From an uncultured Candidatus Saccharibacteria bacterium (lineage in GTDB: Bacteria; Patescibacteriota; Minisyncoccia; Phycocordibacterales; JACNGX01), in NCBI GenBank assembly GCA_964621395.1, contig CAZULS010000002.1:236252-294908 (forward strand): 58,657 bases of DNA. Direction: 5' to 3'. Made by a program: the position numbers and the translations under genes. The notes beneath the pieces are model-generated. The model was given only the letters and a program-made list of their open reading frames with translations. It did not search any database and was not told where the DNA came from. Each line of letters begins with the position of its first letter. The first letter of the stretch is position 1. Positions 3,351 to 58,556 of this stretch are shown here, in pieces.

Positions 3351-3357
3351 ATTGTTT

Positions 3358-3428
3358 GTCATCCCGCACTTGACCCTAAACCACAAGCGGTCGGATACAA
3401 TACGGGATCTTCCCGAATATCCTCAAAG
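3358..3428 (+). repeat. long GTCAT hairpin variant (GTCATCCCGCACTTGA-insert-CGGGATC plus tail)
   Basis: Near-identical second copy at 26691-26760. Confidence 0.75.
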
Positions 3429-3784: not shown

Positions 3785-4075
3785 TTATATCATGCCAAGC
3801 TCATAGGCAAAGCTTTTTCTTCTTTCCAATTCCTCCTTCGGACTATGTTTTTCCTCACGTGGAGAAAAGAAAGAGGAAAATAGAGCAATTATTTCTGGGA
3901 AAAGAATACCTTCCACATCATCAAGTGGTACATTTACCGCATTAAAAGTAACAAAAGCACTTATGCCTGAATGGAAATCACCGGAAAATGTGCACTGACC
4001 ATTCTCAAGATTAATCAATGTTGTATGTTGCATAGCAAAAAATATTTTTGTTTTGAAATTTTCCACCATTGACAA
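3785..4075 (-). CDS. hypothetical small protein
   Basis: 96-aa ORF 17 nt downstream of ddl on the same strand. No recognisable motif. Confidence 0.3.
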   Translation of the reverse strand: MSMVENFKTKIFFAMQHTTLINLENGQCTFSGDFHSGISAFVTFNAVNVPLDDVEGILFPEIIALFSSFFSPREEKHSPKEELERRKSFAYELGMI

Positions 4076-4092
4076 TACAACATTTTAGAAAA

Positions 4093-5016
4093 TTACACAA
4101 CATCCCCCACGACCATATGCACAATATGCTCCATAACCTCTTTTTTCGTCGCCCCCACGTTCTCCATTGCACTGTGGAGCGGTGAGGTGGCGGTGAAATC
4201 AGGTGTGGTGCGTACATCACGCACGATAATTTTCTTTGGTGTGAGCGTGAGATCCACGCGAATGAATCCTTCAAGCGAGAGCGCATCGGCTGTGGCACGA
4301 GCGGTTCGTTCGGCGTCTTTCCCCTCTTCTTTTGACCATACCTGAGGTATGCCGGCGATTGTAGATACCGGAGGGAATACATATCGTTCTTCTCCGCGAA
4401 ATTCGTCAATGAGGTACACGCTCATATGTTTTCCCTGCACGTCTTCTTCTACAAACACATCGCGCACGCCAGGTTGCATATCTGAAAGTGTATGTTCCAC
4501 CTCTTCAATAGCCATAAGTGGTGAAGCCATGTGGGCATTCTCTTCCACAGGAACACTCACAATGCGGAGCGGTAAAGGATGCGTTCGCACAATCGCCAAT
4601 GCCACCTCTTGAGCACTCGGCGCATCATATGCTCGGAGCGAAACCGCATGCGGTGTGTGTATGTCGTTCTCCTTGAGGAGCGTGGCACGTCTTTCCGGAT
4701 GATGAGCGGCTTGTTCCACAAAAGGAGACGCTCCTATATACGGAATACCATGCTGCTCGGCGAGGGTTACTATGCATACGGACATAGGTGACGCACCGGG
4801 AAAGACGGGCACCACAAGAGAAAGTGTGTCGAGTATACGTGAGGGTTCCACATGTATTCCGCCTTTCCACCACTTCCCTTTCTCATCGACAAAAATATCT
4901 TCCGTATCGTATACAATATCTTCACATGCGCGAATGAGTGCCGCGCCAAGTTCGAGCGAGCGCTCGCGTTCGTGTGCTTCTCCTCCCCGTATGATACCAA
5001 TGCGTTCTGCGTACAT
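4093..5016 (-). CDS. ddl: D-alanine--D-alanine ligase-like ATP-grasp enzyme
   Basis: The N-terminal RIGIIRGGEAHERERSLELG and C-terminal GFIRVDL..TTPDFTATSP resemble Ddl family signatures. Confidence 0.7.
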   Translation of the reverse strand: MYAERIGIIRGGEAHERERSLELGAALIRACEDIVYDTEDIFVDEKGKWWKGGIHVEPSRILDTLSLVVPVFPGASPMSVCIVTLAEQHGIPYIGASPFVEQAAHHPERRATLLKENDIHTPHAVSLRAYDAPSAQEVALAIVRTHPLPLRIVSVPVEENAHMASPLMAIEEVEHTLSDMQPGVRDVFVEEDVQGKHMSVYLIDEFRGEERYVFPPVSTIAGIPQVWSKEEGKDAERTARATADALSLEGFIRVDLTLTPKKIIVRDVRTTPDFTATSPLHSAMENVGATKKEVMEHIVHMVVGDVV

Positions 5017-5097: not shown

Positions 5098-5139
5098 GTA
5101 AAAATAAGTTGTCATTCTGACCCCCGAGCCGGAATCTTA

Positions 5140-7619: not shown

Positions 7620-7702
7620 GTCATCCTGAACTTGATTCAGGATCCAGGCAGACACGAATATGTGCACAAAACTCTAGATTCCGGCTCGGGGGCCGGAATG
7701 AC
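7620..7702. repeat. convergent doublet of GTCAT hairpins (REP/BIME-like)
   Basis: GTCATCCTGAACTTGATTCAGGATC (7620-7644) and, on the rc strand, GTCATTCCGGCCCCCGAGCCGGAATC (7677-7702). Confidence 0.75.
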
Positions 7703-7722
7703 AGGAATATAGATTTGGAAGA

Positions 7723-7846: not shown

Positions 7847-10492
7847 TTACTTCTTAATTCTCTTCTTGAGTTCCTTCTTCAAATATTTTCCCGTGTGTGA
7901 TTTCTCACTCGCAGCTACGTCTTCGGGCGTGCCTTTTGCCACGATGGTACCGCCACCTTCGCCTCCTTCAGGACCCATATCGACGAGAAAGTCGACGGAT
8001 TTAATCACGTCCATATTGTGCTCAATGGTAATCACCGTATTACCGCGCTTCACAAGCTCGTCGAGGATTCCAATCAATTTACGCACGTCTTCATAATGGA
8101 GGCCGACGGTCGGCTCATCGAGAAGATACACCGTCTTCTCCGTATGCGGACGATACAGCTCTGAAGAAATCTTCACGCGCTGCGCTTCCCCACCTGAAAG
8201 CGTCGTTGCCGATTGTCCAAGTTCGAGATATCCCAAGCCCACATCTACCAGCGTCTTCAATCGATCATAAATTGCCGGAATGTCAACGAAAAAGTCGGTT
8301 GCTTCCTCTACCGTCATGGAAAGCACATCGGTAATGCTTTTCTTCTTGTATTTCACCTCCAGTGTCTCTTTATCAAAACGCTTCCCGCCACAGACATCAC
8401 ACGTCACATACACCGTGGGCAAGAAATGCATTTCCACGGCAATGACACCATTTCCCTGGCACGCTTCACAGCGTCCGCCACCGCGCTCATTGGGCACATT
8501 AAATGAGAAGCGCCCGGATTTCCATCCGCGAATACGCGCTTCTTCCGTTGAGGCAAAAAGATCACGGATGTGGGTGAATGCGCCGGTATAGGTTGCCGGA
8601 TTGGAGCGCGGTGTGCGTCCGATGGGCGATTGATCAATCAAAATACTGCGCGAGACATATTCCGCTCCCTCAAATGACGCACAATTGTACACATCATTAC
8701 TGCGATATTTCTTCTCAAAGCGTGCACGAAGATTCTGATACAAAATCTCATGCATGAGCGACGACTTCCCCGATCCGGACACGCCGGTAATTGCCACAAA
8801 GCGCCCGAGCGGAATATCGAGTGAGAGATTTTTAATATTAAAGACCTTCCCACCGCGAATTTTAAGCGCACCTTTATTACTATCCCTGCGCTTCTCGGGC
8901 ACGGGGATGAGTTTTTCACCGCGGAGATATGAAAGGGTCTCTGATTTGGAAGGATTGGTTTTTGCTGAAAGGAGTTTGTCGAGATAGCCGGAAACAACAA
9001 CATCACCCCCGCGCACGCCGGCACCCGGCCCAATATCCACGATATAGTCGGAAGCAAAAATAGTATCTTCATCGTGCTCAACAACGAGAATGGTATTGCC
9101 CAGATCACGGAGATGCTTCAGTGTGTGAATGAGACGGTCATTATCACGCTGATGGAGGCCGATGGTCGGCTCATCAAGCACATACAGCGCACCCACAAGC
9201 TGACTGCCGAGCTGTGAAGCAAGACGAATGCGCTGTGCCTCTCCGCCTGAGAGCGTATTGGCACGGCGATCAAGCGTGAGATAATCCAAGCCTACATCAA
9301 GAAGAAATTGCAGACGATGCTCAATTTCTTTGAGGATGACCTTGGCGATTTCGTGCTCACGTTTGCTCAGCTTGAGCTCAATGAAGAAATCGGCGGCATC
9401 ACGTACCGACATAGCCGTAAGCTCCACGATATTCACCCCTATATCTTTTTTCTTCCCTTTATTTTTATTTGCTGTGCCCGGTTTTGGGTCCCCTAATGTG
9501 ACATGAAGCGCCTCTTGTCGCAGTCTGGCGCCATGGCACACTTCACACAGCTCTGTGCCAAATGCGTATTTCGTCCCCAATCCATTACATGCCGGACACG
9601 CACCATAAGGTGAATTGAATGAAAAGAGGCGTGGCTCAATTTCCGGATACGAAAAGCCATCATGCGGGCAGGCAAAGGTAGCCGAAAGAAGCGTCGTCTT
9701 CTCTCCGATACGGATACGCACCGAACCATCAGATTCCACAAGCGCGCGCTCCACCGCCTCAGCCATGCGTTCGCGTGTCGTTTTAGGGTCGGAATCAAAA
9801 TCAAGGAGATCAATCGTGTCTACCACGACATCAATTTCGTGTTTTTTCGTTTTGGTGAGGGTGATATTGTCGCGCAAACTCTTTTTCTCTCCATCCACGC
9901 GCACATGGGAAAATCCTTTGCCGAGAAGATCATAGAGGAGCTGATAGTGTTCGCCCTTGCGTCCGCGCACCACGGGCGCGCCGAGCTCCACGCCGAGTGA
10001 TTCATATGCCACGCCCATAACCTCTTTCGTATTTTTCTTCGCCTCCTTTTGCGCTGCTTTCACTTCTTTCAAAACAAAATTGATGATTTCATCCGGCGAC
10101 AATCGCTCAATCACCCTGCCACACACAAGACAATGCGGTTTGCCCACACGCGCATACAGCACGCGGAGGTAGTCGTATATTTCTGTGATGGTTGCCACCG
10201 TTGAACGCGGATTATTTGAACGGCTCTTCTGATCAATGGAAATAGCCGGCGAAAGCCCCACAATTTCATCAACATCCGGCTTCTGCATCTGACGAAGAAA
10301 TTGTCGCGCATATGCCGAAAGCGATTCCACATAGCGCCTCTGACCTTCGGCAAAAATCGTATCAAACGCCAAAGACGACTTTCCCGATCCGGAAAGCCCT
10401 GTGAAGACGACCATGGTATTGCGTGGCATTTCCACGGTAATATCCTTGAGATTATGGGTTCGCGCCCCTTTGACGATGATTTTTTCTTCCAT
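7847..10492 (-). CDS. uvrA: excinuclease ABC subunit A
   Basis: 881 aa with two ABC ATPase modules ([26 protein letters not shown] twice) and zinc-finger cysteines. Confidence 0.97.
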
Positions 10493-10511: not shown

Positions 10512-10544
10512 GCCTAAAACATGATAAATCATGTTCGGCCACAG
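10512..10544 (-). repeat. S-hairpin repeat
   Basis: GCCTAAAACATGATAAATCATGTTCGGCCACAG. Confidence 0.65.
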
Positions 10545-10604
10545 TAGGAGATTAAAAGTTACATATGCCTATAGCATCGCGAGCGATGCTCGGCCACGTA
10601 AGAG

Positions 10605-10652
10605 CCGCCAAAGTTACGCTTTGGCAGAATTGCCAAAGCGTAACTTTGGCGG
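10605..10652. repeat. 48-bp compound palindrome of the CCAAAG..CTTTGG class
   Basis: CCGCCAAAGTTACGCTTTGGCAG-AAT-TGCCAAAGCGTAACTTTGGCGG. A half-copy lies at 39196-39218. Confidence 0.85.
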
Positions 10653-10840
10653 CTCCGCCCATACACACCATACCACCCCGCGCTTTGTGCATGGGGTGTA
10701 TAGAGAACCATTCTTGCAGGTCTCGTGTATACTAGTATAGACGAAATGTTTGAGATGCGCTCTATTGACATAAAATACACATCATGTACTATCGTGGTAG
10801 CATTTCTTTTCAATTTCATTCACCGAAAAACAACCCGACA

Positions 10841-11629: not shown

Positions 11630-11676
11630 TTCACAACACCGGCAGCCCCGGTGCTTTTTTGTGGCAAAATGACGGA

Positions 11677-11702
11677 GATTCCCGCTCGGAGGCGGGAATG
11701 AC
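11677..11702 (-). repeat. GTCAT hairpin (CCCGC stem class)
   Basis: The rc reads GTCATTCCCGCCTCCGAGCGGGAATC. Confidence 0.7.
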
Positions 11703-11718
11703 AGTGGAAAGTAATATG

Positions 11719-14244: not shown

Positions 14245-14318
14245 GTGGGTATACTGTAGCATAAAATGAGGAGATTAGGAGATTAAAGGTTAAGAATTAA
14301 CAGCACACTCTTTTTAGT

Positions 14319-14343
14319 GTCATCCCGCACTTGATGCGGGATC
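14319..14343 (+). repeat. GTCAT hairpin (CCCGCA stem class)
   Basis: GTCATCCCGCACTTGATGCGGGATC. Confidence 0.8.
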
Positions 14344-25399: not shown

Positions 25400-26668
25400 C
25401 TAAAGCCGTCTCAGAAACTCCCCTGCTATTCTGTATACATCTTGATACGTGTCTGCATTCATGAGCTTCATGCGGAGTTCTTTTGCTCCAGGGAATCCAC
25501 GGACGTATGCGGAATAGTGCTTTTTCATGATGGCGAAGTTTTTGTTTGGGTGCATTTTTTCATAGAGTTTCGTGTGCTCGGTGAGTGTTTCAAGAATTTC
25601 TTCTACACTGCATGTATGCTCACCCCGCACCACGAGGGGTGCGGGGTTCTCTTCGTGCATGCCGCGCTGCTCACGCGGTGTATGAAGGAATATCCAAGGA
25701 TTACCAAACACCGCGCGACCAATCATGATGCCGTCGGCGCCGGTCTCTTGTGCTTTGTGTATACCGTCGGAAATGTTCGTAACATCACCATTACCGATAA
25801 TGAGCGTATGAGGTGCGTATTCATTTCGCAGCTCCACTGTACGTGCAACTCGCTCCCAACGTGCCGGTACTTTCGACATATCCTTGCGCGTGCGGGCATG
25901 GATAGTCAACGCGGGAAGATTGAGTGAAAGAAGCTCGGGAATCCACTCTTCCAGTATATCTTTCGAGAAACCAATGCGCGTCTTCACCGACACCGGCGTA
26001 TCTTTTCCCGCCGCTTTTACTCCTTCGCGCACCGCTTCCACAATCTCCTTTGCGCGCTTGGGATCACGAATAAGATCGGCGCCGGCGCGCTGCTTGATAA
26101 TCGCCTCTTGAGGGCATCCCATATTGATATCGATGCCATTGAAATTAAGCTTCGCCACTTCGCGCGCACCGATACACATCGTCTCCGGATTACCCCCAAA
26201 AATCTGCGCGATAATCGGTCGTTGCTTTTTGGTATAGGCGAGGTCGGAAATGAGATGAGGTCGCCCTTCATCGCTCGCTAATCCGTCGCAAGCGACGAAT
26301 TCAGTCCACATGATGTCCGGTCCCCCGTGTTTTGTGCTCATCAACGAATCAAACCCTCTAAAAACAGGAAAAGGTAAGAAGGAATTTTTCATGAGCTCCG
26401 CTTGGCAGTCCTCGCATCGAATATTCGGCTGCGCCTCGTTACTCAAACACGCCGCACAGGAGTGCGCCGTATTTTCCGTAACATCGGCTCGCACGAATCT
26501 TCGCCACGAGAACAAGCCATTTTCAGAGGGTTCAATTCTACTTTTCCTCGCAATAATTTCACGGAAGGCATTGTCGGTGGCATCTGCCATCGGCGCAAGC
26601 GCAAAAAACGGCTTCTTTCCTCGAACCGTATCCCACACATTCTTTTCTTGTCGGTGAAAGGTGAACAT
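25400..26668 (-). CDS. dus: tRNA-dihydrouridine synthase carrying a ~70-aa repeat-derived insertion
   Basis: LAPMADATDNAFR, IDINMGCP and a TIM-barrel Dus pattern. The start was set at MFTFHRQEK (26668). The track ORF extension to 26893 runs through repeats. Confidence 0.88.
   Translation of the reverse strand: MFTFHRQEKNVWDTVRGKKPFFALAPMADATDNAFREIIARKSRIEPSENGLFSWRRFVRADVTENTAHSCAACLSNEAQPNIRCEDCQAELMKNSFLPFPVFRGFDSLMSTKHGGPDIMWTEFVACDGLASDEGRPHLISDLAYTKKQRPIIAQIFGGNPETMCIGAREVAKLNFNGIDINMGCPQEAIIKQRAGADLIRDPKRAKEIVEAVREGVKAAGKDTPVSVKTRIGFSKDILEEWIPELLSLNLPALTIHARTRKDMSKVPARWERVARTVELRNEYAPHTLIIGNGDVTNISDGIHKAQETGADGIMIGRAVFGNPWIFLHTPREQRGMHEENPAPLVVRGEHTCSVEEILETLTEHTKLYEKMHPNKNFAIMKKHYSAYVRGFPGAKELRMKLMNADTYQDVYRIAGEFLRRL
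26346..26538 (+). mobile_element. R200 TIR element, copy C, inside the dus reading frame
   Basis: DNA alignable to 32527-32721 and 41329-41524 (CTTGGCA..CTCGCA..ATATTCGGCTG..CATCGGCTCGCACGAAT..CACGAGAA.AAGCCATTT). Its own arms are GAATCAAACCCTCTAAAAA / TTTTCAGAGGGTTCAATTC. Confidence 0.75.
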
Positions 26669-26690
26669 TGTTAGACAAAAGATAACAGGT

Positions 26691-26760
26691 GTCATCCCGC
26701 ACTTGATCCTAAACCACAAGTGGTCGGATGCAATGCGGGATCTTCCCGAATAACCTTCAA
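26691..26760 (+). repeat. long GTCAT hairpin variant, copy 2
   Basis: Matches 3358-3428. Confidence 0.75.
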
Positions 26761-26775
26761 AAATAATATATCGAA

Positions 26776-26801
26776 GATTCCGGCTCGGGGGCCGGAATGA
26801 C
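26776..26801 (-). repeat. GTCAT hairpin (CCGGC stem class)
   Basis: The rc reads GTCATTCCGGCCCCCGAGCCGGAATC. Confidence 0.75.
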
Positions 26802-26810
26802 AGGAGAAAA

Positions 26811-27668
26811 TCATTCCGCCTCCCCTTTCTCTCGGAAAAATACCTTATTCCCGAAACGCATATCAAGATACTCCCAATCGGTGTTTTCTTCAAGCGATTC
26901 CAAGACCGCTATAATATCGGTACCCACTTTATCCGGATTCACGTCAAGCGGATACATGAGATAGGTATCGTCCTCAAAGAAAAGGTAGCCGTCTTCTCCG
27001 CGAAATTCATGACGCACACCAATCAAACCACCCTCTTCCACACGTTCAACCACGGCAACAGTATTTTCAAACACCTCATCCGGAGCGATATATGTGCCGA
27101 CAGCCTCTTTTTCCACTTCGCCACCATACCACTGAAAAAACGCCGAACCGGAAAAGAGCGGTGCCTCGTCAAAGATAAATCCTTCCGTGTCCACAAAGTA
27201 ACATGTCGGTGTATATTCCTCTCCGATGAGCGCTTTGTCACGTTCACGATCGATGTATGAATCTTCACACCACAGAGACACAGGAACGCGTTCGGTAATA
27301 TCGATGATAATTGCCGTCATATTCTCTCGCTTCACAGAAAGTGTATCCACTCGAAGAAATGTTTCCATGATGCGAGTAATAATATCGTTCTTGGGGTACC
27401 AGAGCGTATTGGCACGATTCCACATGAGAAAATTATTTCCCTCCAGTTCTTGTTGTGCCAAGTCAATGACACTTTCCTCATCAATCGTCTTCACACCCTC
27501 CACCTTCACAGAACGTATGGATACCGCTTCGTGATGCGAGCCCCATGCGAGAAGTCCGACAATGCAGCACATGCCCAATACACCAATGCCGAAAAAGACG
27601 CCGAGCTTCTTGTGTTCTTTACGGCGTTTTTCTTTTCTCTTTCGATGGATGAGTGTATGGCGACGCAT
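26811..27668 (-). CDS. ftsQ: cell division protein FtsQ/DivIB-like (POTRA)
   Basis: Basic N-terminus, a TM helix, then IRSVKVEGVKTIDEESV, which is POTRA-like. Confidence 0.65.
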   Translation of the reverse strand: MRRHTLIHRKRKEKRRKEHKKLGVFFGIGVLGMCCIVGLLAWGSHHEAVSIRSVKVEGVKTIDEESVIDLAQQELEGNNFLMWNRANTLWYPKNDIITRIMETFLRVDTLSVKRENMTAIIIDITERVPVSLWCEDSYIDRERDKALIGEEYTPTCYFVDTEGFIFDEAPLFSGSAFFQWYGGEVEKEAVGTYIAPDEVFENTVAVVERVEEGGLIGVRHEFRGEDGYLFFEDDTYLMYPLDVNPDKVGTDIIAVLESLEENTDWEYLDMRFGNKVFFREKGEAE

Positions 27669-31706: not shown

Positions 31707-32333
31707 TTATTCGTATCGATCAAGGCTTTTAACGATTCTTGAAACCGTTTCTCCTGTCTTTGTCTTTTGATACGGACCAAGAAATGTCCACGCAACAACC
31801 TTTCTGTTATCCCCCTTCTCAATGAGAGTCAATAGCTTTGAGAGCCAATCTTCGTCGGAAGGAATCATCTGACCGTATGGAATCTCATCGAATGAATACC
31901 AGGTTGGTTTTTTCATCTCCTCACTGCCCTGTATTTCTTCTCTATTTAAAACCCAATCCCGAGCAACAAAAAAGTCAACACGACATGTCTTTTTTGTTCC
32001 ATCTTCTCGAGTATTTTCTGCAAAGACAATGGCTCTTTTTTCAAGATCATTAGGAGAGACGATAACGCTTCCGCCTGTTTCCTCTTTTACCTCACGAGCC
32101 GTTGCAATCTCAAGAGACTCTCCGTCATGAGGAGCTCCTCCGGGACCATTCCACGTTTCTTCTCCCATACGTCTATGCCCTTCGTCTTTACCCTTCCACA
32201 TGAGGAGGACTTGGTATTTTTGCAAAGAAGAATTGTGTGCAACAAGAAGACACACAACCGCCTGCCCAAGGACCTTATCTTTTGGAATATTTTTATCCAT
32301 ATCGTTGGTGATTTTAATTTTCGATTTCCTCAT
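31707..32333 (-). CDS. NUDIX hydrolase
   Basis: Nudix box GGAPHDGESLEIATAREVKEETGG. The start may instead be the internal Met at 32300. Confidence 0.75.
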   Translation of the reverse strand: MRKSKIKITNDMDKNIPKDKVLGQAVVCLLVAHNSSLQKYQVLLMWKGKDEGHRRMGEETWNGPGGAPHDGESLEIATAREVKEETGGSVIVSPNDLEKRAIVFAENTREDGTKKTCRVDFFVARDWVLNREEIQGSEEMKKPTWYSFDEIPYGQMIPSDEDWLSKLLTLIEKGDNRKVVAWTFLGPYQKTKTGETVSRIVKSLDRYE

Positions 32334-32526
32334 TCAAGACTACCAATTTCTCACTAAAATGCAATGGTGTGGGAGGCGGGACCGCAGGTCCCGCCTTCTT
32401 TTGAGGCGCGCGAAGCGCGCCTATTCTTTATTCTTAACTCTTAATTCATAATTCTATTCACTATCCCCATTTGCACAAAATACAAACATGGTGTACTAAT
32501 AGTGCCTATACGGAACCGAAAAGCCT

Positions 32527-32721
32527 AGAACCCATCTCACATTAAACCGCTAAAAATAACACTTTGCACTTCGTGTAGATGCTTGGCAATTCTCGCACTC
32601 TCTGTTCTGGCTGCGTCTCGTCGCTCAACCAGAGCGCACGAGAGTGCGGCACGGTTTCCGCGACTGCAACTCGCTCAGCGAGAGAGTGCGAGAATAAGCA
32701 ATTTAATGTGAGATGGGTTCT
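32527..32721 (+). mobile_element. R200 TIR element, copy A, 49 nt upstream of topA
   Basis: Arms AGAACCCATCTCACATTAAA / TTTAATGTGAGATGGGTTCT. An internal long imperfect palindrome has a central CGCAC-GAGA-GTGCG hairpin. Confidence 0.8.
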
Positions 32722-32770
32722 CATTATCGCACGCCAGAATCACATTCGTATTATTTGTAATTCGCATTCT

Positions 32771-34942
32771 ATGAAATTAGTCATTGTTGAATCACCGGCG
32801 AAAGCCAAAACAATTGAGAAATATCTCGGTAAGGATTACACCGTGCGTGCCAGTGTTGGCCATGTGCGCGACCTTCCCAAGAGCAACAAAAAAGCCATTG
32901 ATATTCCGGCTGGTTTTGTGCCGCATTATGAAAATCTTCCCGGGAAAGAAAAGGTGATCAAGGAAATCAAGACACTTGCAAAGAAAGCCAACGATGTCAT
33001 TCTTGCAACCGACCCCGACCGTGAAGGTGAGGCTATTGCTCATCATGTGGCAGCAGTGCTTGAACTAAAAAAACCAAAACGTATTGCTTTCAATGAAATC
33101 ACCAAAGATGCAGTACAAGAAGCCATTGAACATCCTCGCGCTATTGATAAGACACTTGTTTCCGCTCAGGAAGCACGTCGTGTGCTCGACCGACTCTTCG
33201 GCTATGATCTCTCCGGCCTCATCTGGAAGAAAGTGCGCTACGGACTCTCCGCCGGTCGTGTGCAATCTCCGGCACTTCGTATTTTGATGGAACGCGAACG
33301 TGAGATCCGTGCATTCATTCCGGAAACCTACTACACACTCACACTCGACACCACTCACTCCAAGAGTAAGAGTGATATCGTCTTCACCTGTCCGGAAGAG
33401 CCAGAGAGCGCGGCGCGCGCGGAAGAGATTGTGGAGAAGGGAAAAGCATCGTCTTGGGCTATTGGCGAGGTAAAAGAATCGAGTCAAAAGCGCGCGCCGC
33501 GTCCGCCGTTTACCACATCAACCCTGCAACAAACAGCAAGTACTCGTCTTGGCTTCCCTCCTTCAAAGACAATGAGCGTCGCTCAAAAGCTCTACGAAGC
33601 CGGCTACATCACCTATATGCGCACCGACAGCACCACCCTTTCCAAAGAAGCAATGGGAGGCATTGCATCTCACGTATCGAAAACATATGGCAAAGAAAAA
33701 CTCGCTCCACGCACCTATGCAAAGAAAGCAAAGAATGCTCAGGAAGCACATGAGGCAATCCGCCCGAGTAATTTTGGATTAAAAACCGCCGGTTCTTCCC
33801 CCGATCAAAAGAAGCTTTACGAGCTCATCTTTGCACGTGCCGTCGCCTCACAGATGATTGATGCAACTATGCAGAAAACCCGTGTCTCTGCCAAAGCAAG
33901 CGATGAGAGCGTGCCTGATTTTATTGCCAATGGTTCACGCGTGGTTTCTCCCGGATGGCTTCTTGCCGAGCCGGCGGCGCGCGGTGAAGATACTGAGCTT
34001 CCGAAATGCGAAGAGGGAGACGCGCTCAAGATGAATGCTCTTGAATCAGAAGAAAAGCAAACCCAGCCACCCGGACGCTACACCGAGGCCGGTCTTGTGA
34101 AAGAGCTTGAGAAGCGCGGTATCGGCCGTCCGTCGACATACGCTGCCATTATCAAGACACTCGTCGATCGTGGGTATGTGGAGCGCGAAAAGCGCACACT
34201 TTTCCCCACCGATACCGGCGACGTGGTGAGCTCTTTCCTCGAGGAACACTTCACCCATTATATTAGCGACGACTTCACCGCACATATGGAAGACGAGCTC
34301 GACGATATTGCCGGAGGAAGCCGTACCTATAAAGGAACGCTCGAGGAATTCTACGGGCCGTTTACCGATGCCGTGGAAGCTAAGGGCGATATCCCGAAGC
34401 TTACCACTTTGGGTGACGCTGATCCGAAATATACATGTCCGGAATGTGGAAGCGGTATGGTGATTAAGCTCGGCAAAACCGGCATCTTTCTTTCATGTGA
34501 AAAATTCCCTGGGTGTACCGGTGCACGCACGAAAGACGGCGACGCGATGGAAGGCCCCAAACCGATTGGCAAGAAGTGCCCGAAGTGTGAAGGAGAACTC
34601 ATAGAACGCACCGGGCGTTTCGGCACCTTTATTGCCTGCAGCAATTATCCGAAATGTAAGTATGTGGAATCTGATCCGGAAGAAGAAGCACGCAAGGATA
34701 CCGGCGTGAAGTGTCCGAAATGTGACAAGGGAAATATTATCGAGCGTCGCGGTCGCTTCGGTCCTTTCTTTGGATGTTCCAATTATCCTGACTGTAAGTA
34801 TGCGATGAAGGCACGCCCAACGGGCGCAAAATGCCCGATGTGCGGCGAACTCATGATGGAAGGCACCAAGACTATTCCCGAGCGCTGTTCGGATAAATCA
34901 TGTCCGAATCATAATCCGCATAAGCTAAAGCCAGGAGATTAG
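32771..34942 (+). CDS. topA: DNA topoisomerase I with C-terminal zinc ribbons
   Basis: Toprim start MKLVIVESPAKAKTIEKYLG and four CxxC..CxxC fingers. The track ORF start at 32579 lies inside repeat R200-A. Confidence 0.96.
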   Translation: MKLVIVESPAKAKTIEKYLGKDYTVRASVGHVRDLPKSNKKAIDIPAGFVPHYENLPGKEKVIKEIKTLAKKANDVILATDPDREGEAIAHHVAAVLELKKPKRIAFNEITKDAVQEAIEHPRAIDKTLVSAQEARRVLDRLFGYDLSGLIWKKVRYGLSAGRVQSPALRILMEREREIRAFIPETYYTLTLDTTHSKSKSDIVFTCPEEPESAARAEEIVEKGKASSWAIGEVKESSQKRAPRPPFTTSTLQQTASTRLGFPPSKTMSVAQKLYEAGYITYMRTDSTTLSKEAMGGIASHVSKTYGKEKLAPRTYAKKAKNAQEAHEAIRPSNFGLKTAGSSPDQKKLYELIFARAVASQMIDATMQKTRVSAKASDESVPDFIANGSRVVSPGWLLAEPAARGEDTELPKCEEGDALKMNALESEEKQTQPPGRYTEAGLVKELEKRGIGRPSTYAAIIKTLVDRGYVEREKRTLFPTDTGDVVSSFLEEHFTHYISDDFTAHMEDELDDIAGGSRTYKGTLEEFYGPFTDAVEAKGDIPKLTTLGDADPKYTCPECGSGMVIKLGKTGIFLSCEKFPGCTGARTKDGDAMEGPKPIGKKCPKCEGELIERTGRFGTFIACSNYPKCKYVESDPEEEARKDTGVKCPKCDKGNIIERRGRFGPFFGCSNYPDCKYAMKARPTGAKCPMCGELMMEGTKTIPERCSDKSCPNHNPHKLKPGD

Positions 34943-40490: not shown

Positions 40491-40529
40491 CGCCCGTGTT
40501 TTTCTTTTTTCTTATTTCAAAAAATTATT

Positions 40530-40613
40530 GTCATCCCGCACTTGATGCGGGATCCAGAGCAAGACAAACTCATGAGACAAATCTCTAGATTCCGGCTCAG
40601 AGGCCGGAATGAC
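40530..40613. repeat. convergent doublet of GTCAT hairpins
   Basis: GTCATCCCGCACTTGATGCGGGATC and, on the rc strand, GTCATTCCGGCCTCTGAGCCGGAATC. Confidence 0.8.
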
Positions 40614-40630
40614 AACTTATTTTTTACTGT

Positions 40631-40695: not shown

Positions 40696-41301
40696 TTATA
40701 TCTTCCCCACCAAATCCAACCCCGGCTCAAGCGTGTCGTCTCCCGGGTTCCAGCTTGCCGGACATACCTTACCTTCGTGTTCGGCGACAAACTTTGCCGC
40801 GCGTACTTTTCGCAAGAGTTCTTTTGCACTGCGACCGATGGAATTGTCGTTTATCTCCGTTCCCACGATCTTCCCTTCCGGATTCACAATGAATGTACCG
40901 CGGAGCGTGACACCTTCGTCGGGCAAGTACACACCGAGTGCACGAGCAAGCTTCCCTGCCGGATCAGCAAGCATCGGATAGGTCACTTTCTTAATTGCCT
41001 CTGAAGCATCATGCCATGCCTTATGCGTGTATACCGTATCGGTGCTCACCGACATCACCTCCACCCCTTCTTTTTGAAATTCTCCATACAATCCCGCGAG
41101 TTCTTCGAGCTCTGTAGGGCACACAAAGGTGAAGTCTGCCGGATAAAAAACAAACACCGCCCACTTCCCCTTCATGTCGTTTGTGCTTATCGTCGTAATC
41201 TTTCCTTCATGATATGCCTCAAGCGTTACATCGGGCACATGGCGACCAACCATTGGCATATCTTCTTCAAACAAAAAATCGTCCATATATGTGTTTTCCA
41301 T
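40696..41301 (-). CDS. 2-Cys peroxiredoxin
   Basis: FYPADFTFVCPTELEEL. The start may be an internal Met (MPMVGRHVP). Confidence 0.92.
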   Translation of the reverse strand: MENTYMDDFLFEEDMPMVGRHVPDVTLEAYHEGKITTISTNDMKGKWAVFVFYPADFTFVCPTELEELAGLYGEFQKEGVEVMSVSTDTVYTHKAWHDASEAIKKVTYPMLADPAGKLARALGVYLPDEGVTLRGTFIVNPEGKIVGTEINDNSIGRSAKELLRKVRAAKFVAEHEGKVCPASWNPGDDTLEPGLDLVGKI

Positions 41302-41328
41302 AGTAGTGTATAATATTGACTAATATAT

Positions 41329-41524
41329 AGAACCCATCTCATATTAAACCGCCTAAGATAATACTTTTTACACTTCGTGTAAGAGCTTGGCAATTCTCGC
41401 ACCACATATTCGGCTGTGCCTTGTCTCTCAACCACACCGCACGAAAGTGCGGCACGGTCTCCGAGACATCGGCTCGCACGAATATGCGGCACGAGAATAA
41501 GCCATTTAATATGAGACGGGTTCT
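41329..41524 (+). mobile_element. R200 TIR element, copy B, between the divergent prx and miaA genes
   Basis: Arms AGAACCCATCTCATATTAAA / TTTAATATGAGACGGGTTCT, with a central CCGCAC-GAAA-GTGCGG hairpin. Confidence 0.8.
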
Positions 41525-41564
41525 AGGTCTCGTACGTTTTGAGACATCGCAAGTATACCACACT

Positions 41565-42482
41565 ATGTCGTCTTCTCCTCGTCAGAAAAAACAAAAGGTG
41601 ATTGTCATCGTCGGACAAACCGCTTCGGGAAAAAGCGCTCTTGGTGTGGAGATTGCGCGTGCAGTGGAGGGAGAGATTATCTCCGCCGACTCGCGGCAAG
41701 TGTATCGCGGATGTGATATCGGTACCGGGAAAATCACACGCCGTGATATGAAGGGTGTTCCTCATCATCTTATTGATGTGACAAGTCCGCGCAAGGCATT
41801 CACCGCCGCGCAGTTTAGAGAAAAAGGGCGCAACGTAATCACCGATATTGGAAAGCGTGGAAAGGTGCCAATCATTGCCGGTGGTACGGGATTTTATATT
41901 GATACACTTCTTTTCGATGATGAGCTTCCCGCCGTGGCACCCGACTCAACACTTCATGCGTTTTTAGAGAAAAAAACAGCTGCCGAACTTTTTGCCCGTC
42001 TTTCCGATAGCGACCCCGAACGTGCCGCCTCTATCGACAGAAACAACAAACGTCGCCTTATCCGTGCACTTGAAATAGCTGAAACACTCGGCCACGTACC
42101 CAAACGAGCGACACGTCGAACTTCTCCGTATAATATCCTTTGGATCGGTATTCGTTTGCCGGACGGACTCTTGCGTGAGCGGATTCACGATCGTAATGCC
42201 GACATGATTGGCAAAGGGCTCGTGGCCGAAGTAAAACGACTCAAGGAATCACGCATATCCGACAAGCGCATGTATGAGCTTGGTTTTGAGTATCGCTTTG
42301 CTCTTGATTACCTCAAGGGAGAAATCGATCGCGAGACTATGCTTGAGCGCATGAATACCAAAACATGGCACTATGCGAAGCGCCAGAAGACGTGGTTCCA
42401 GCGCAATGCCGATATTAGTTGGTTTGCTCCCACAGATACCGTCCATATCATGGCGACGGTGTGGTCGTTTCTCGCGGATTAA
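41565..42482 (+). CDS. miaA: tRNA dimethylallyltransferase
   Basis: IVGQTASGKSALG and SADSRQVYRGCDIGTGK. The start was set at MSSSPRQKK. The track ORF start at 41421 is inside R200-B. Confidence 0.92.
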   Translation: MSSSPRQKKQKVIVIVGQTASGKSALGVEIARAVEGEIISADSRQVYRGCDIGTGKITRRDMKGVPHHLIDVTSPRKAFTAAQFREKGRNVITDIGKRGKVPIIAGGTGFYIDTLLFDDELPAVAPDSTLHAFLEKKTAAELFARLSDSDPERAASIDRNNKRRLIRALEIAETLGHVPKRATRRTSPYNILWIGIRLPDGLLRERIHDRNADMIGKGLVAEVKRLKESRISDKRMYELGFEYRFALDYLKGEIDRETMLERMNTKTWHYAKRQKTWFQRNADISWFAPTDTVHIMATVWSFLAD

Positions 42483-52347: not shown

Positions 52348-52353
52348 ATTTTT

Positions 52354-52379
52354 GTCATTCCGGCCTCTGAGCCGGAATC
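52354..52379 (+). repeat. GTCAT hairpin (CCGGC class)
   Basis: GTCATTCCGGCCTCTGAGCCGGAATC. Confidence 0.8.
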
Positions 52380-52403
52380 TAGATTTATTATATTTGTCCT
52401 CTG

Positions 52404-56681: not shown

Positions 56682-56710
56682 GCCCGAGCACGACTTGTCG
56701 TGCTTTAGGC
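56682..56710 (+). repeat. S-hairpin repeat overlapping the stop codon of the 56705 gene
   Basis: GCCCGAGCACGACTTGTCGTGCTTTAGGC. Confidence 0.7.
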
Positions 56711-57337
56711 CTTACTCGCCTTGAGCACAATCACCTCCCCTTCCATAGCGCTCACATCTTTTTTCTTGAGTGTTGCTTTCTCCACCGCCTTCACCCCTTC
56801 AGCACCGGCTTCTTTGAGAAAGGTCTTCAGCATTGCCGCATCGGTATCGACGGGAATAATTACACTGGCGCCGAGCTTGGTAGCAAGCTTGTGTGCAGCA
56901 TTCGGCGCAAGAAGATCACCGTCACCCACAGGTGTAATCAAAATATCCACATCCTCACCAATTCCCTCATATACTTCCGGTGAAAGCTCGTTGGAGGAAA
57001 GTGCGCCCAAGACAACCACATTCATCTGCTCAAGTGAGATGCGATATACGGTGTTGATGTATGAATCTTTGCTGAGCTTTGTTTCAGACGGCATCCCCTT
57101 CACATACACACCGCTCACTTCATACTCCCCCGGACCGGAAATCACAAACGGCTCTTTATCGCCGTAGCGCACACTGTCCACGCCGTTGTAATCGGGATGC
57201 GGCACCGACGAAAGCGCCACATCAGCGCCAAAACGAGCACCGGAAAGCTTGGAATCTTTGCTGATGGGATTCACCGCGATAACCGTATCGCCAAGCTGAA
57301 TACGAATAAACTGTTTGTCGTAATATGTGATAATCAT
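56705..57337 (-). CDS. MBL-fold (UPF0173-like) hydrolase
   Basis: The N-terminal MIITYYDKQFIRIQLGDTVIAVNP pattern. The metal-binding motif looks degenerate. Confidence 0.5.
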   Translation of the reverse strand: MIITYYDKQFIRIQLGDTVIAVNPISKDSKLSGARFGADVALSSVPHPDYNGVDSVRYGDKEPFVISGPGEYEVSGVYVKGMPSETKLSKDSYINTVYRISLEQMNVVVLGALSSNELSPEVYEGIGEDVDILITPVGDGDLLAPNAAHKLATKLGASVIIPVDTDAAMLKTFLKEAGAEGVKAVEKATLKKKDVSAMEGEVIVLKASKA

Positions 57338-57341
57338 GATG

Positions 57342-57529
57342 AGAACCTGGCTCAGTAAAAATGGCTTGCTCTCGTGTTCGTCATTCGTGCGAGACGCTGG
57401 CGCGGAGTGCGAAGCGTATTACAATACGGTGAGCGCGAGTGGCAAGTCGCAGCCGAATGGCGGACGCGAGAGTTGCCAAATGAAACCATAGATTATGTAT
57501 ATAAATGTTTTTTACTGATGCCAGGTTCT
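57342..57529 (-). mobile_element. R200 TIR element, copy D, 4 nt upstream of the 57337 start
   Basis: The rc has arms AGAACCTGGCATCAGTAAAAA / TTTTTACTGAGCCAGGTTCT and a shared interior (TTGGCAACTCTCGC..ATTCGGCTG..CTCGCACGAAT..CACGAGAGCAAGCCATTT). Confidence 0.7.
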
Positions 57530-57536
57530 AGTATAT

Positions 57537-57764: not shown

Positions 57765-58556
57765 CTATTCACTCCCTGCAGCAGCAATAACATCAAGTGT
57801 CACTTTGCTATTACCGAGAAAGACATCCCTCCGTTCTGCTTCGTCCTTTGGCCAATGCCTGACCACATCTTCAATCATGTTCAGGCAGTCAATAAGAGGT
57901 GCGCAAACCGACTGGAGCCCGGCACTATAGATATCAGGGTCATCGTCCTCTGCGAGGAACGAAACTGTAAGCTCACCACCCTCAATCTTACGGGCAAAGG
58001 TAAACATGAGACGACCTGCCATAACAAACGTGCGAAGCTCGGTCTTTCCAAAGACTCCGCTCATTCCCCGTCCTCTTTCCTGCTGAATGATTTCATACAG
58101 ACCACAACGGTAGACTTCCCGAGCAAATTTATCAAAGAATTGCTGAAGTACATGCCCTTGGGCATTGAGATATGCATCACACGATGCCTCCATATAATTC
58201 CCGACAATGTCCTTGAGGAGAAATCCTATTGCTTGCGTTCTGAGTACACGATCAACGGTGTCACTCTCCCCGACAGCAAGCAGGCTCGGTACAGGCCTTT
58301 CTGTTTCCATTTCGTATGACTCCCTGAATACAGCAACCCATTCCTCGTCACTGTTCTTAAGGACATCAAATGCGTCGCCTGTAATCTGGGGAAGATAAGG
58401 GCTGACGTTATAGAAATCATATTTTTCGTCGTGATTAATCTTTAGGCGACGGAGATATTCGAGAAAAAATTGAAGGAATGGTTCATCTCCTTTTGTCCTG
58501 AATTCTCTTGTCGCAAGTGCGTTTTCGATTTTCTCGATGAGTTCTGCTTTTTTCAT
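57765..58556 (-). CDS. hypothetical protein
   Basis: 263-aa ORF in a repeat-free stretch. No motif recognised. Confidence 0.55.
   Translation of the reverse strand: MKKAELIEKIENALATREFRTKGDEPFLQFFLEYLRRLKINHDEKYDFYNVSPYLPQITGDAFDVLKNSDEEWVAVFRESYEMETERPVPSLLAVGESDTVDRVLRTQAIGFLLKDIVGNYMEASCDAYLNAQGHVLQQFFDKFAREVYRCGLYEIIQQERGRGMSGVFGKTELRTFVMAGRLMFTFARKIEGGELTVSFLAEDDDPDIYSAGLQSVCAPLIDCLNMIEDVVRHWPKDEAERRDVFLGNSKVTLDVIAAAGSE

Follow-up and report, generated by a model that had tools for sequence, protein, structure and literature searches.

An in-frame insertion in dus that resembles a small palindromic mobile element in a Patescibacteria genome

Correia elements of Neisseria and RUP of Streptococcus pneumoniae are miniature inverted-repeat transposable elements (hereafter MITEs) with TA target duplication, and ERIC elements have a length of about 127 nt. 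In-frame palindromic, MITE-like insertions in genes are known from the Rickettsia palindromic elements (RPEs) and also from ERIC, BOX, QMITE and Anabaena MITEs (PMC10969869, PMC5896051); according to the summary of Ogata et al. (2000, 2002) in PMC10969869, three of the ten RPE families have close to half of their copies inside open reading frames (ORFs). Here we analyse a palindromic repeat located in dus, a tRNA-dihydrouridine synthase gene, on a 58,657-nt stretch (hereafter the window) of contig CAZULS010000002.1 from an uncultured Candidatus Saccharibacteria bacterium, for which a first-pass annotation had proposed an in-frame insertion of the repeat. We consider it probable that the insert is a copy of a non-autonomous, foldback, MITE-like and TA-targeting family, that it entered dus once and in frame, that the enzyme tolerates it as a loop and that the allele spread by recombination.

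The added segment of Dus

The gene and the insertion comprise these features (window positions):

25400..26668, minus strand: dus (tRNA-dihydrouridine synthase), host gene of the insertion, supported by ORF, Pfam, orthologues and dN/dS
26342..26536, minus strand: net insertion of 195 nt or 65 codons, aa 45-109 (IEPSENGLF...RGFDSL), from codon alignments with the empty alleles L002, L054 and L055 and the filled allele L001
26346..26538, minus strand: element proper, 193 nt, GAATTGAACCC...GGGTTTGATTC on the sense strand, from blastn, nhmmer and folds
26346..26364, no strand assigned: terminal inverted arm GAATCAAACCCTCTAAAAA (plus-strand letters), paired with 26520-26538 in folds
26520..26538, no strand assigned: terminal inverted arm TTTTCAGAGGGTTCAATTC (plus-strand letters), paired with 26346-26364 in folds
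26315..26338, minus strand: hyper-divergent 24 nt directly 3' of the insert, MSTKH in the window and MGKRG in all relatives, with 13/24 nt different from L001

The dus ORF is uninterrupted on the minus strand (25400..26893 in the ORF listing) and its probable start, the ATG at 26668, yields a 422-aa product that matches the Pfam family PF01207 (Dus; E 1.6e-53). The closest homologues in a search of 5.8 billion proteins are annotated as tRNA-dihydrouridine synthases of Parcubacteria, 'Candidatus Yonathbacteria' or Patescibacteria, and the related contigs originate from TARA ocean metagenomes. Alignment with 16 orthologues places 65 extra residues (aa 45-109, window 26342-26536) between ..NAFREIIARKSR and MSTKHGGPDIMWTEF... 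In the orthologues P0002-P0007, which are 81-90% identical, and in all of the more distant ones, ..IIARKSR runs directly into MGKRGGGPDIMWTEF.., and the insert is present in only one other of the aligned proteins (P0001, 404 aa). The segment is lineage-specific, a point that the first-pass annotation had proposed to check against orthologues; the extra segment that it had placed between ..NAFREIIARK and GGPDIMWTEF is real, although its size is 65 rather than about 70 residues.

Both the absence of any stop or frameshift and the extent of the repeat had been described correctly, in that the interval 26346-26538 is exactly the element proper and bears the inverted arms reported for it. The element is flanked by TA (26539-26540) and, in the minus-strand reading, by GT (26344-26345); its 193 nt plus 2 nt add up to 195 nt and therefore keep the reading frame, and the insert is exactly 65 codons long, in frame and stop-free in two alleles. 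These alleles (window and L001) have common junctions, AGTAGA|ATT and TCGTTG|ATG, which occur in no empty allele. Given that such odd junctions are common to both filled alleles, the insertion in dus therefore arose once, and independent 'homing' insertions at the same site are ruled out by the same non-canonical junctions. An intein was likewise discarded, as the 65 residues carry no Pfam domain and the junction residues are I and M, not C, S or T. The hyper-divergence at 26315-26338 is limited to the window allele and looks like a local complex event beside the element. At the insertion site itself, the insert-free L002 (10120-10135) and P0006 carry a 7-codon deletion, with ARKGRPD instead of ARKSRMGKRGGGPD, which could be natural loop-length variation or the footprint of an imprecise element loss.

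Between the two insert-bearing alleles, the ratio of non-synonymous to synonymous substitution rates (dN/dS) of dus is 0.09-0.14 (dS 0.47-0.52), values with which the gene should therefore not be regarded as a pseudogene. Purifying selection acts on dus (dN/dS about 0.1), and the residues invariant across 69 Dus sequences are all kept in the window protein. In an AlphaFold2 model built from a 69-sequence alignment (mean predicted local distance difference test (pLDDT) score, 82.8), the barrel exceeds a pLDDT of 90 and the C-terminal helical domain is confident, and residues 49-109 score 27-37. Helix 33-42 (..NAFREIIARK) precedes the insert and strand 119-126 (IMWTEF) follows it, which places it in the alpha1->beta2 connection of the TIM barrel. 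Foldseek aligned the model to solved Dus structures with target-normalised template modelling (TM) scores of 0.75-0.82. The solved homologue 1vhn has 3 residues at the site where window Dus has 76; the length of this loop also varies among relatives (approximately 20 residues longer in P0028, 7 codons shorter at the same point in L002/P0006). The modelled position, with pLDDT below 50 throughout 49-109, bears out the surface loop that the first-pass annotation had thought a model might reveal.

Loops that connect a helix with the strand after it in beta/alpha barrels sit on the side away from the catalytic face; by this known topology, the insert loop would be on the face opposite the FMN/tRNA site. 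The 65 residues are predicted to be disordered, and most likely their translation gives the enzyme an unstructured surface loop with which it can cope, the gene remaining functional. A second lineage-specific stretch of the window protein, aa 327-350 (approximately 25600-25690, minus strand; ..LHTPREQRGMHEENPAPLVVRGEH..), is 18 residues longer than in L001/L002, falls in a region that is variable in all relatives, has a pLDDT of 58-73 and has no similarity to the repeat.

The repeat family, its target site and its hairpin

Besides the dus copy (26346-26538), an nhmmer profile recovered three further full copies in the window and no more:

32526..32722, minus strand: intergenic copy between a NUDIX gene (31707-32333, minus strand) and topA (true start approximately 32770, plus strand), absent at the syntenic L002 site
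41328..41525, minus strand: intergenic copy flanked by TA at either end, upstream of miaA (plus strand) and 27 nt upstream of the peroxiredoxin gene (40696-41301, minus strand)
57341..57530, plus strand: intergenic copy between the minus-strand genes 56705-57337 and 57765-58556, antisense to both

The DNA similarity between the dus insert and the intergenic copies, on which the first-pass annotation had relied, proved significant: blastn aligned the dus copy with 41385-41507 (79% over 123 nt, E 2e-25) and with 32581-32648 (E 3e-5), and a two-block core pattern matched four times in the window against 0 expected from 100 shuffles. Copies are 190-201 nt long and contain no transposase gene; their ORFs are only read-throughs of 54-74 aa, none with a family match. 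All full copies have the terminal inverted repeats (T/G)AGAAC..GTTCTA with arms of 20-22 bp, and copies within one genome differ by 20-30%. The density is about 5-7 copies per 100 kb, with 4 copies in the 58.7 kb of the window and 3 in 62 kb of a relative, at other sites; more were found on unrelated small metagenome contigs (L053, L056 and L058). Among about 10 copies, there is one in-frame case (dus) and one disruptive case (a DUF1801 gene).

In nearly all copies, the dus frame contains 0-1 stops. The dus copy, L056 and L057b form a subfamily with ..CTSTGAAAAYGGC termini (TGAAAA terminus), all three members of which have 0 stops in this frame, and the copies outside it have TGA or TAA in the 3' arm in that frame. 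As this subfamily is stop-free in the dus frame, correct orientation and length were all that an open insertion required, with no need for special luck. Peptide identity among copies (33-42%) is no higher than DNA identity predicts, and internal indels shift the frame. Protein searches with the dus-frame peptides returned only short spurious ORFs and one fusion, and a search with the other open frame of the element returned nothing; P0126, P0127 and P0129 were set aside as low-complexity matches.

A phage collection had no blastn match to the element. A 19-base core pattern gave 49 single matches in unrelated phyla among GTDB representative genomes, all of them chance by nhmmer, and that scan showed the family in no species-representative genome. 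With a 24-base two-block pattern, a JGI metagenome scan yielded one locus (L053) and an IMG/VR scan had no match. Against Rfam 15, including group I/II introns, only tRNAs passed the gathering threshold in the window, and the elements reached nothing better than E 3. The L053 contig carries a solo terminus (1258-1310, with 26 nt of the arm) and a 5'-truncated copy (3920-4114) in the same orientation, which flank an 860-aa surface-protein gene and represent decayed or rearranged copies.

Mobility was assessed on L002, a syntenic 318-kb TARA scaffold from a relative. No copy occurs in its 21 kb that include dus and topA, and the site upstream of topA is empty; the scaffold has copies elsewhere (two in L057, one in L059). 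Presence and absence of copies between close relatives indicate that the element has been mobile recently. One L057 copy (10249-10446) splits a DUF1801 gene: the ORF enters the element in the dus frame and stops in the 3' arm, such that the last 29 residues are swapped for 61 element-encoded ones. Once the element and one TA are removed, the upstream frame joins ..KHIEIDSVHHIDEKRIITLLKLVKSKQGV* and the DUF1801 domain matched by Pfam grows from 1-63/85 (44 bits) to 1-82/85 (56 bits); at this one site, the restoration directly shows insertion into TA with TA duplication. Across full copies, TA is found on both sides in 4/9 and on at least one side in 8/9. The second L057 copy (10539-10735) is 90 nt from the first and ends approximately 25 nt upstream of the start of a HIT-family gene, mirroring the window copy 27 nt upstream of the peroxiredoxin gene. 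The L059 copy (10053-10273) separates dnaK from dnaJ and is antisense to the two genes; the TA at its end overlaps the dnaK stop codon (TAG), and a GC-rich terminator-like hairpin adjoins it.

When folded, each copy forms a single long, imperfect hairpin that bears a small side branch close to its 3' end, with minimum free energy z-scores of -8 to -13.6 against shuffles for the better strand. In an alignment of six copies (approximately 67% identical per column), RNAalifold gave 70 consensus pairs, of which 92.9% of cells are standard pairs and 31 have changes on both sides; none of 500 shuffles attained the observed values of pairing and covariation, and sliding the 3' partner by 1-3 columns lowered pairing to 34-45% and left 6-11 pairs in which both sides had changed. 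In 7/9 full copies, it is one and the same strand that is clearly more stable (by 13 to 30 kcal/mol), and in none is it less stable; this strand has 4-11 G-U pairs versus 0-5 on the other. We assigned the strand of the dus element by the more stable hairpin, which forms on the dus sense strand (minus; -89.6 versus -60.0 kcal/mol on plus); the element had previously been called antisense to dus, an orientation that was chosen arbitrarily and is not supported. Orientation relative to transcription is split among informative contexts (sense in dus, L057a, L057b and L053; antisense in the 57341-57530 copy (c57) and L059), and an orientation bias was not upheld.

The remaining window genes are housekeeping genes (uvrABC, tgt, dnaX, serS, dprA, topA, relA/spoT and parB, together with the peroxiredoxin gene, miaA, sodA, infB, rbfA and gyrA). 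Two long plus-strand ORFs (32579..34942 and 41421..42482) begin within repeat copies and continue in frame into topA and miaA, the true starts of which are near 32770 (MKLVIVESPAKAK) and near 41565 (MSSSPRQKK), respectively; gene callers could make false N-terminal extensions here, or the extensions could be real. A second, unrelated family of short GC-rich hairpin repeats, similar to repetitive extragenic palindromes (REP-like), occupies intergenic regions with modules GTCATCCCGCA..TGCGGGAT and GATTCCGGCTCGGGGGCCGGAATGAC (window 26690-26806, 3357-3427, 7676-7706, 52353-52396, 967-1013, 5110-5138, 11673-11710, 40529-40614 and 14317-14335; L056 780-950; L002 9832-9943). One such set is directly upstream of dus, and L001 is without the whole intergenic block.

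Origin and spread of the insert allele

Divergence between the window and L001 is distributed along dus as follows:

dus nt 1-75: 12% differences
dus nt 76-330: 3/255 differences
dus nt 331-354: 13/24 differences
dus beyond nt 354: 8-10% differences

Within this mosaic, the insert differs at 2/195 positions, both non-synonymous, and has 0 synonymous differences where 14.8 would be expected from the rest of dus (P = 1.6e-8), a deficit for which recombination or extra constraint must therefore be invoked. Only 3 differences fall in a 261-nt tract (dus nt 70-330) that spans the insert together with approximately 60 nt on the left and 3 nt on the right of it, and near-identity reaches 57 nt into the left flank. 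A divergent patch (roughly 550 nt) around the 5' end of dus takes in the ftsQ-like/dus junction, the opening 132 nt of the gene and the insert; to either side of it, L001 and the insert-free L002 are approximately 98.5% identical. The identical in-frame insertion and junctions recur in L001, an independent assembly of another sample, and the insert-bearing allele is now present in at least two lineages with strong divergence in the remainder of dus. On these alignments, a recent transfer of the allele between diverged lineages, through short-patch homologous recombination, is the most likely reading; the main alternative is that the hairpin constrains the nucleotide sequence, and both fit the near-identity.

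On the basis of these observations, we envision a family of small, non-autonomous mobile elements, palindromic over their whole length (190-200 nt, with GAAC...GTTC ends and usually TA flanks), residing in a marine Parcubacteria-like lineage of Patescibacteria. Such elements may transpose into a TA dinucleotide by a MITE-like cut-and-paste or copy-in route that duplicates the TA, with a transposase supplied in trans whose type we infer. One insertion of a stop-free-subfamily member, in sense orientation and in frame, would have added 195 nt to dus in the alpha1->beta2 loop; the resulting allele would have arisen once and then passed between co-occurring populations by short-patch homologous recombination.

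Several observations weigh against this scenario. The right flank of the dus site is GT rather than TA, and the empty topA site reads ATGG without a clean TA duplication; the duplication model rests on one reconstructed site and flank statistics, and on this sequence evidence the mechanism may be considered supported but not proven. No transposase and no full-length autonomous element with these termini was detected in the window (40 ORFs against Pfam) or in the fetched loci, which were checked through precomputed Pfam domains of called genes. The absence of synonymous changes is unlike a loop that is merely tolerated and translated after vertical descent, and translation of the insert is itself something we infer from its sequence. 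Finally, a transposase that binds the terminal inverted repeats of double-stranded DNA would not require the entire hairpin to be preserved through compensatory changes and with a strand bias, a pattern that hints at an RNA or single-stranded DNA (ssDNA) stage or function beyond this scenario.

We give only a small chance to a further reading, namely that the insert allele or the element is actively spreading between diverged Patescibacteria, and that a mobile element with a structured RNA or ssDNA form specific to one strand has entered a conserved enzyme gene by drive-like or selected spread rather than as a passively tolerated MITE; it is raised because of the near-identical tract, the small imported patch in L001 and the strand-specific compensatory evolution of the hairpin. 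It is improbable, in our view, that the element acts chiefly as a functional RNA (or ssDNA) structure specific to one strand (such as a stabiliser of mRNA, a target of RNase III or a small RNA precursor) whose hairpin is kept by selection on the host or the element, with the dus copy being both translated and an RNA structure and hence nearly invariant. Very strong covariation (31/70 pairs), the consistent strand asymmetry of stability and G-U content and the lack of synonymous change in the insert would all suit such a function, as would the location of the two insert differences (one in the side branch, where pairing is weak, and one that creates a lone A-C mismatch within the terminal stem) and the position of c41 (41328-41525) and L057b approximately 25 nt upstream of start codons on the sense strand. 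However, orientation to flanking transcripts is mixed, with c57 and L059 antisense to tandem genes, there is no Rfam match at any threshold, and copies of one genome differ by 20-30%, indicating that the family tolerates change; presence/absence between close relatives and one gene disruption are typical of selfish DNA, and near-identity that extends 57 nt into the left flank is a better fit to recombination.

Other explanations concern the fate or the reality of the segment rather than its mobility. Removal from, or bypass in, the dus mRNA (intron-like or by translational bypass, with the hairpin joining the junctions) could draw on ends that pair in a hairpin of approximately -90 kcal/mol on the mRNA strand and on a pattern of 0 synonymous and 2 non-synonymous differences that is unlike coding sequence, but is very unlikely given an exact length of 65 codons, stop-free and in frame in two alleles, a subfamily that is intrinsically stop-free in the dus frame, a 196-nt copy that merely truncates another gene, no match to group I/II introns or other Rfam families, and the lack both of a matching pair of take-off and landing codons and of a stop at the 5' junction. 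It is less credible still that the residues are a genuine, selected accessory domain of Dus rather than selfish DNA: although the insert contains HSCAAC...RCEDCQ (that is, CxxC-x13-CxxC, as in a CxxC...CxxC zinc ribbon) and a weak ZZ-finger match (E 0.14), we rejected such a domain on its absence from orthologues that are 81-90% identical, a pLDDT of 27-37, a Pfam match far below threshold and a first CxxC that is not conserved in the same frame of other copies (HFRAVW, HSRALW and similar), and the segment has nucleotide homology to intergenic repeats. That dus is a decaying pseudogene, or the junction an assembly artefact, can be almost entirely discounted; metagenome assemblies can collapse or misjoin repeats, yet the same insertion with identical junctions was assembled independently in L001, and the dN/dS of 0.09-0.14 and the complete set of invariant residues argue against decay. 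Among known element classes, REP or bacterial interspersed mosaic elements (BIME) and IS200/IS605-derived elements (PATE), which lack terminal inverted repeats and target duplication, have short subterminal hairpins and go with a Y1 (RAYT/TnpA) transposase, were rejected as the element termini pair together, TA duplication is seen at one site and the window has no Y1 transposase, and integron attC-like sites were rejected as the termini are unlike RYYYAAC/GTTRRRY core sites and there is no cassette array.

Comparison with known palindromic elements

The genomes of Patescibacteria (that is, the candidate phyla radiation (CPR)) are small and streamlined. The window holds a dense, recently mobile family that can disrupt genes (DUF1801) and can also reshape a conserved enzyme of tRNA modification, apparently without inactivating it. 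In practical terms, the repeats yield spurious ORFs and wrong start codons; the hairpin conservation and the mosaic dus allele offer handles on recombination and element dynamics in uncultured populations. Full-text literature searches turned up no paper on MITEs or palindromic elements in Patescibacteria/CPR, which, given their incomplete coverage, is absence of evidence only.

A close parallel is provided by RPEs, described in PMC10969869 as palindromic repeats of 100-200 nt that are found between genes and in frame in housekeeping genes, add a peptide at a fold-compatible position and keep one element frame open. The present family is set apart by its host (Patescibacteria, not Rickettsiales), and no sequence kinship is expected; it also differs in having one in-frame and one disruptive case among about 10 copies, no peptide conservation beyond DNA identity and TA flanks that suggest a defined transposition mechanism. 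The likeness of the dus insertion to RPEs is best regarded as a functional analogy only. The first-pass annotation drew this analogy aptly, and its statement that such insertions are undescribed for this group agrees with the literature found; in-frame MITE fusions are not unique to Rickettsia, having been reported also for ERIC, BOX, QMITE and Anabaena MITEs, so the novelty is narrower than it implied.

Correia elements and RUP (for which we drew partly on PMC10969869) are likewise small, non-autonomous, TA-flanked, multicopy and strain-variable, have terminal inverted repeats and can form RNA hairpins when co-transcribed; in the present element, by contrast, the whole length and not the termini alone forms a hairpin kept by compensatory changes with a strand bias, and no cognate IS630-type transposase was identified in the window or fetched loci. 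ERIC elements are imperfect palindromes over their whole length with reported intragenic ORF fusions (PMC10969869), but differ in sequence, size and host, and their mobility is poorly documented, whereas presence and absence are clear for the present family. QMITE1 and QMITE2 of Coxiella burnetii are MITEs of an obligate host-associated bacterium with a reduced genome, which overlap ORFs, sometimes in frame, and alter protein termini (PMC5896051); their direct repeats are variable (2-3 or 7-11 nt) rather than TA, and their in-frame mid-ORF cases are in hypothetical proteins and not in a conserved enzyme barrel (PMC5896051).

With a length below approximately 600 bp, no transposase gene, terminal inverted repeats and dispersed copies that vary between relatives, the present family shows several generic features of MITEs, and it appears to lie outside the named families compared (no Rfam match and no relatives in the pattern scans of GTDB representatives and IMG/VR). 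We thus regard it as a new family of a known kind with known behaviour, in a phylum where such elements are unreported. It stands above the routine in two respects: compensatory changes strongly conserve the whole hairpin in a strand-specific way, and the insert allele of dus is mosaic and nearly invariant.

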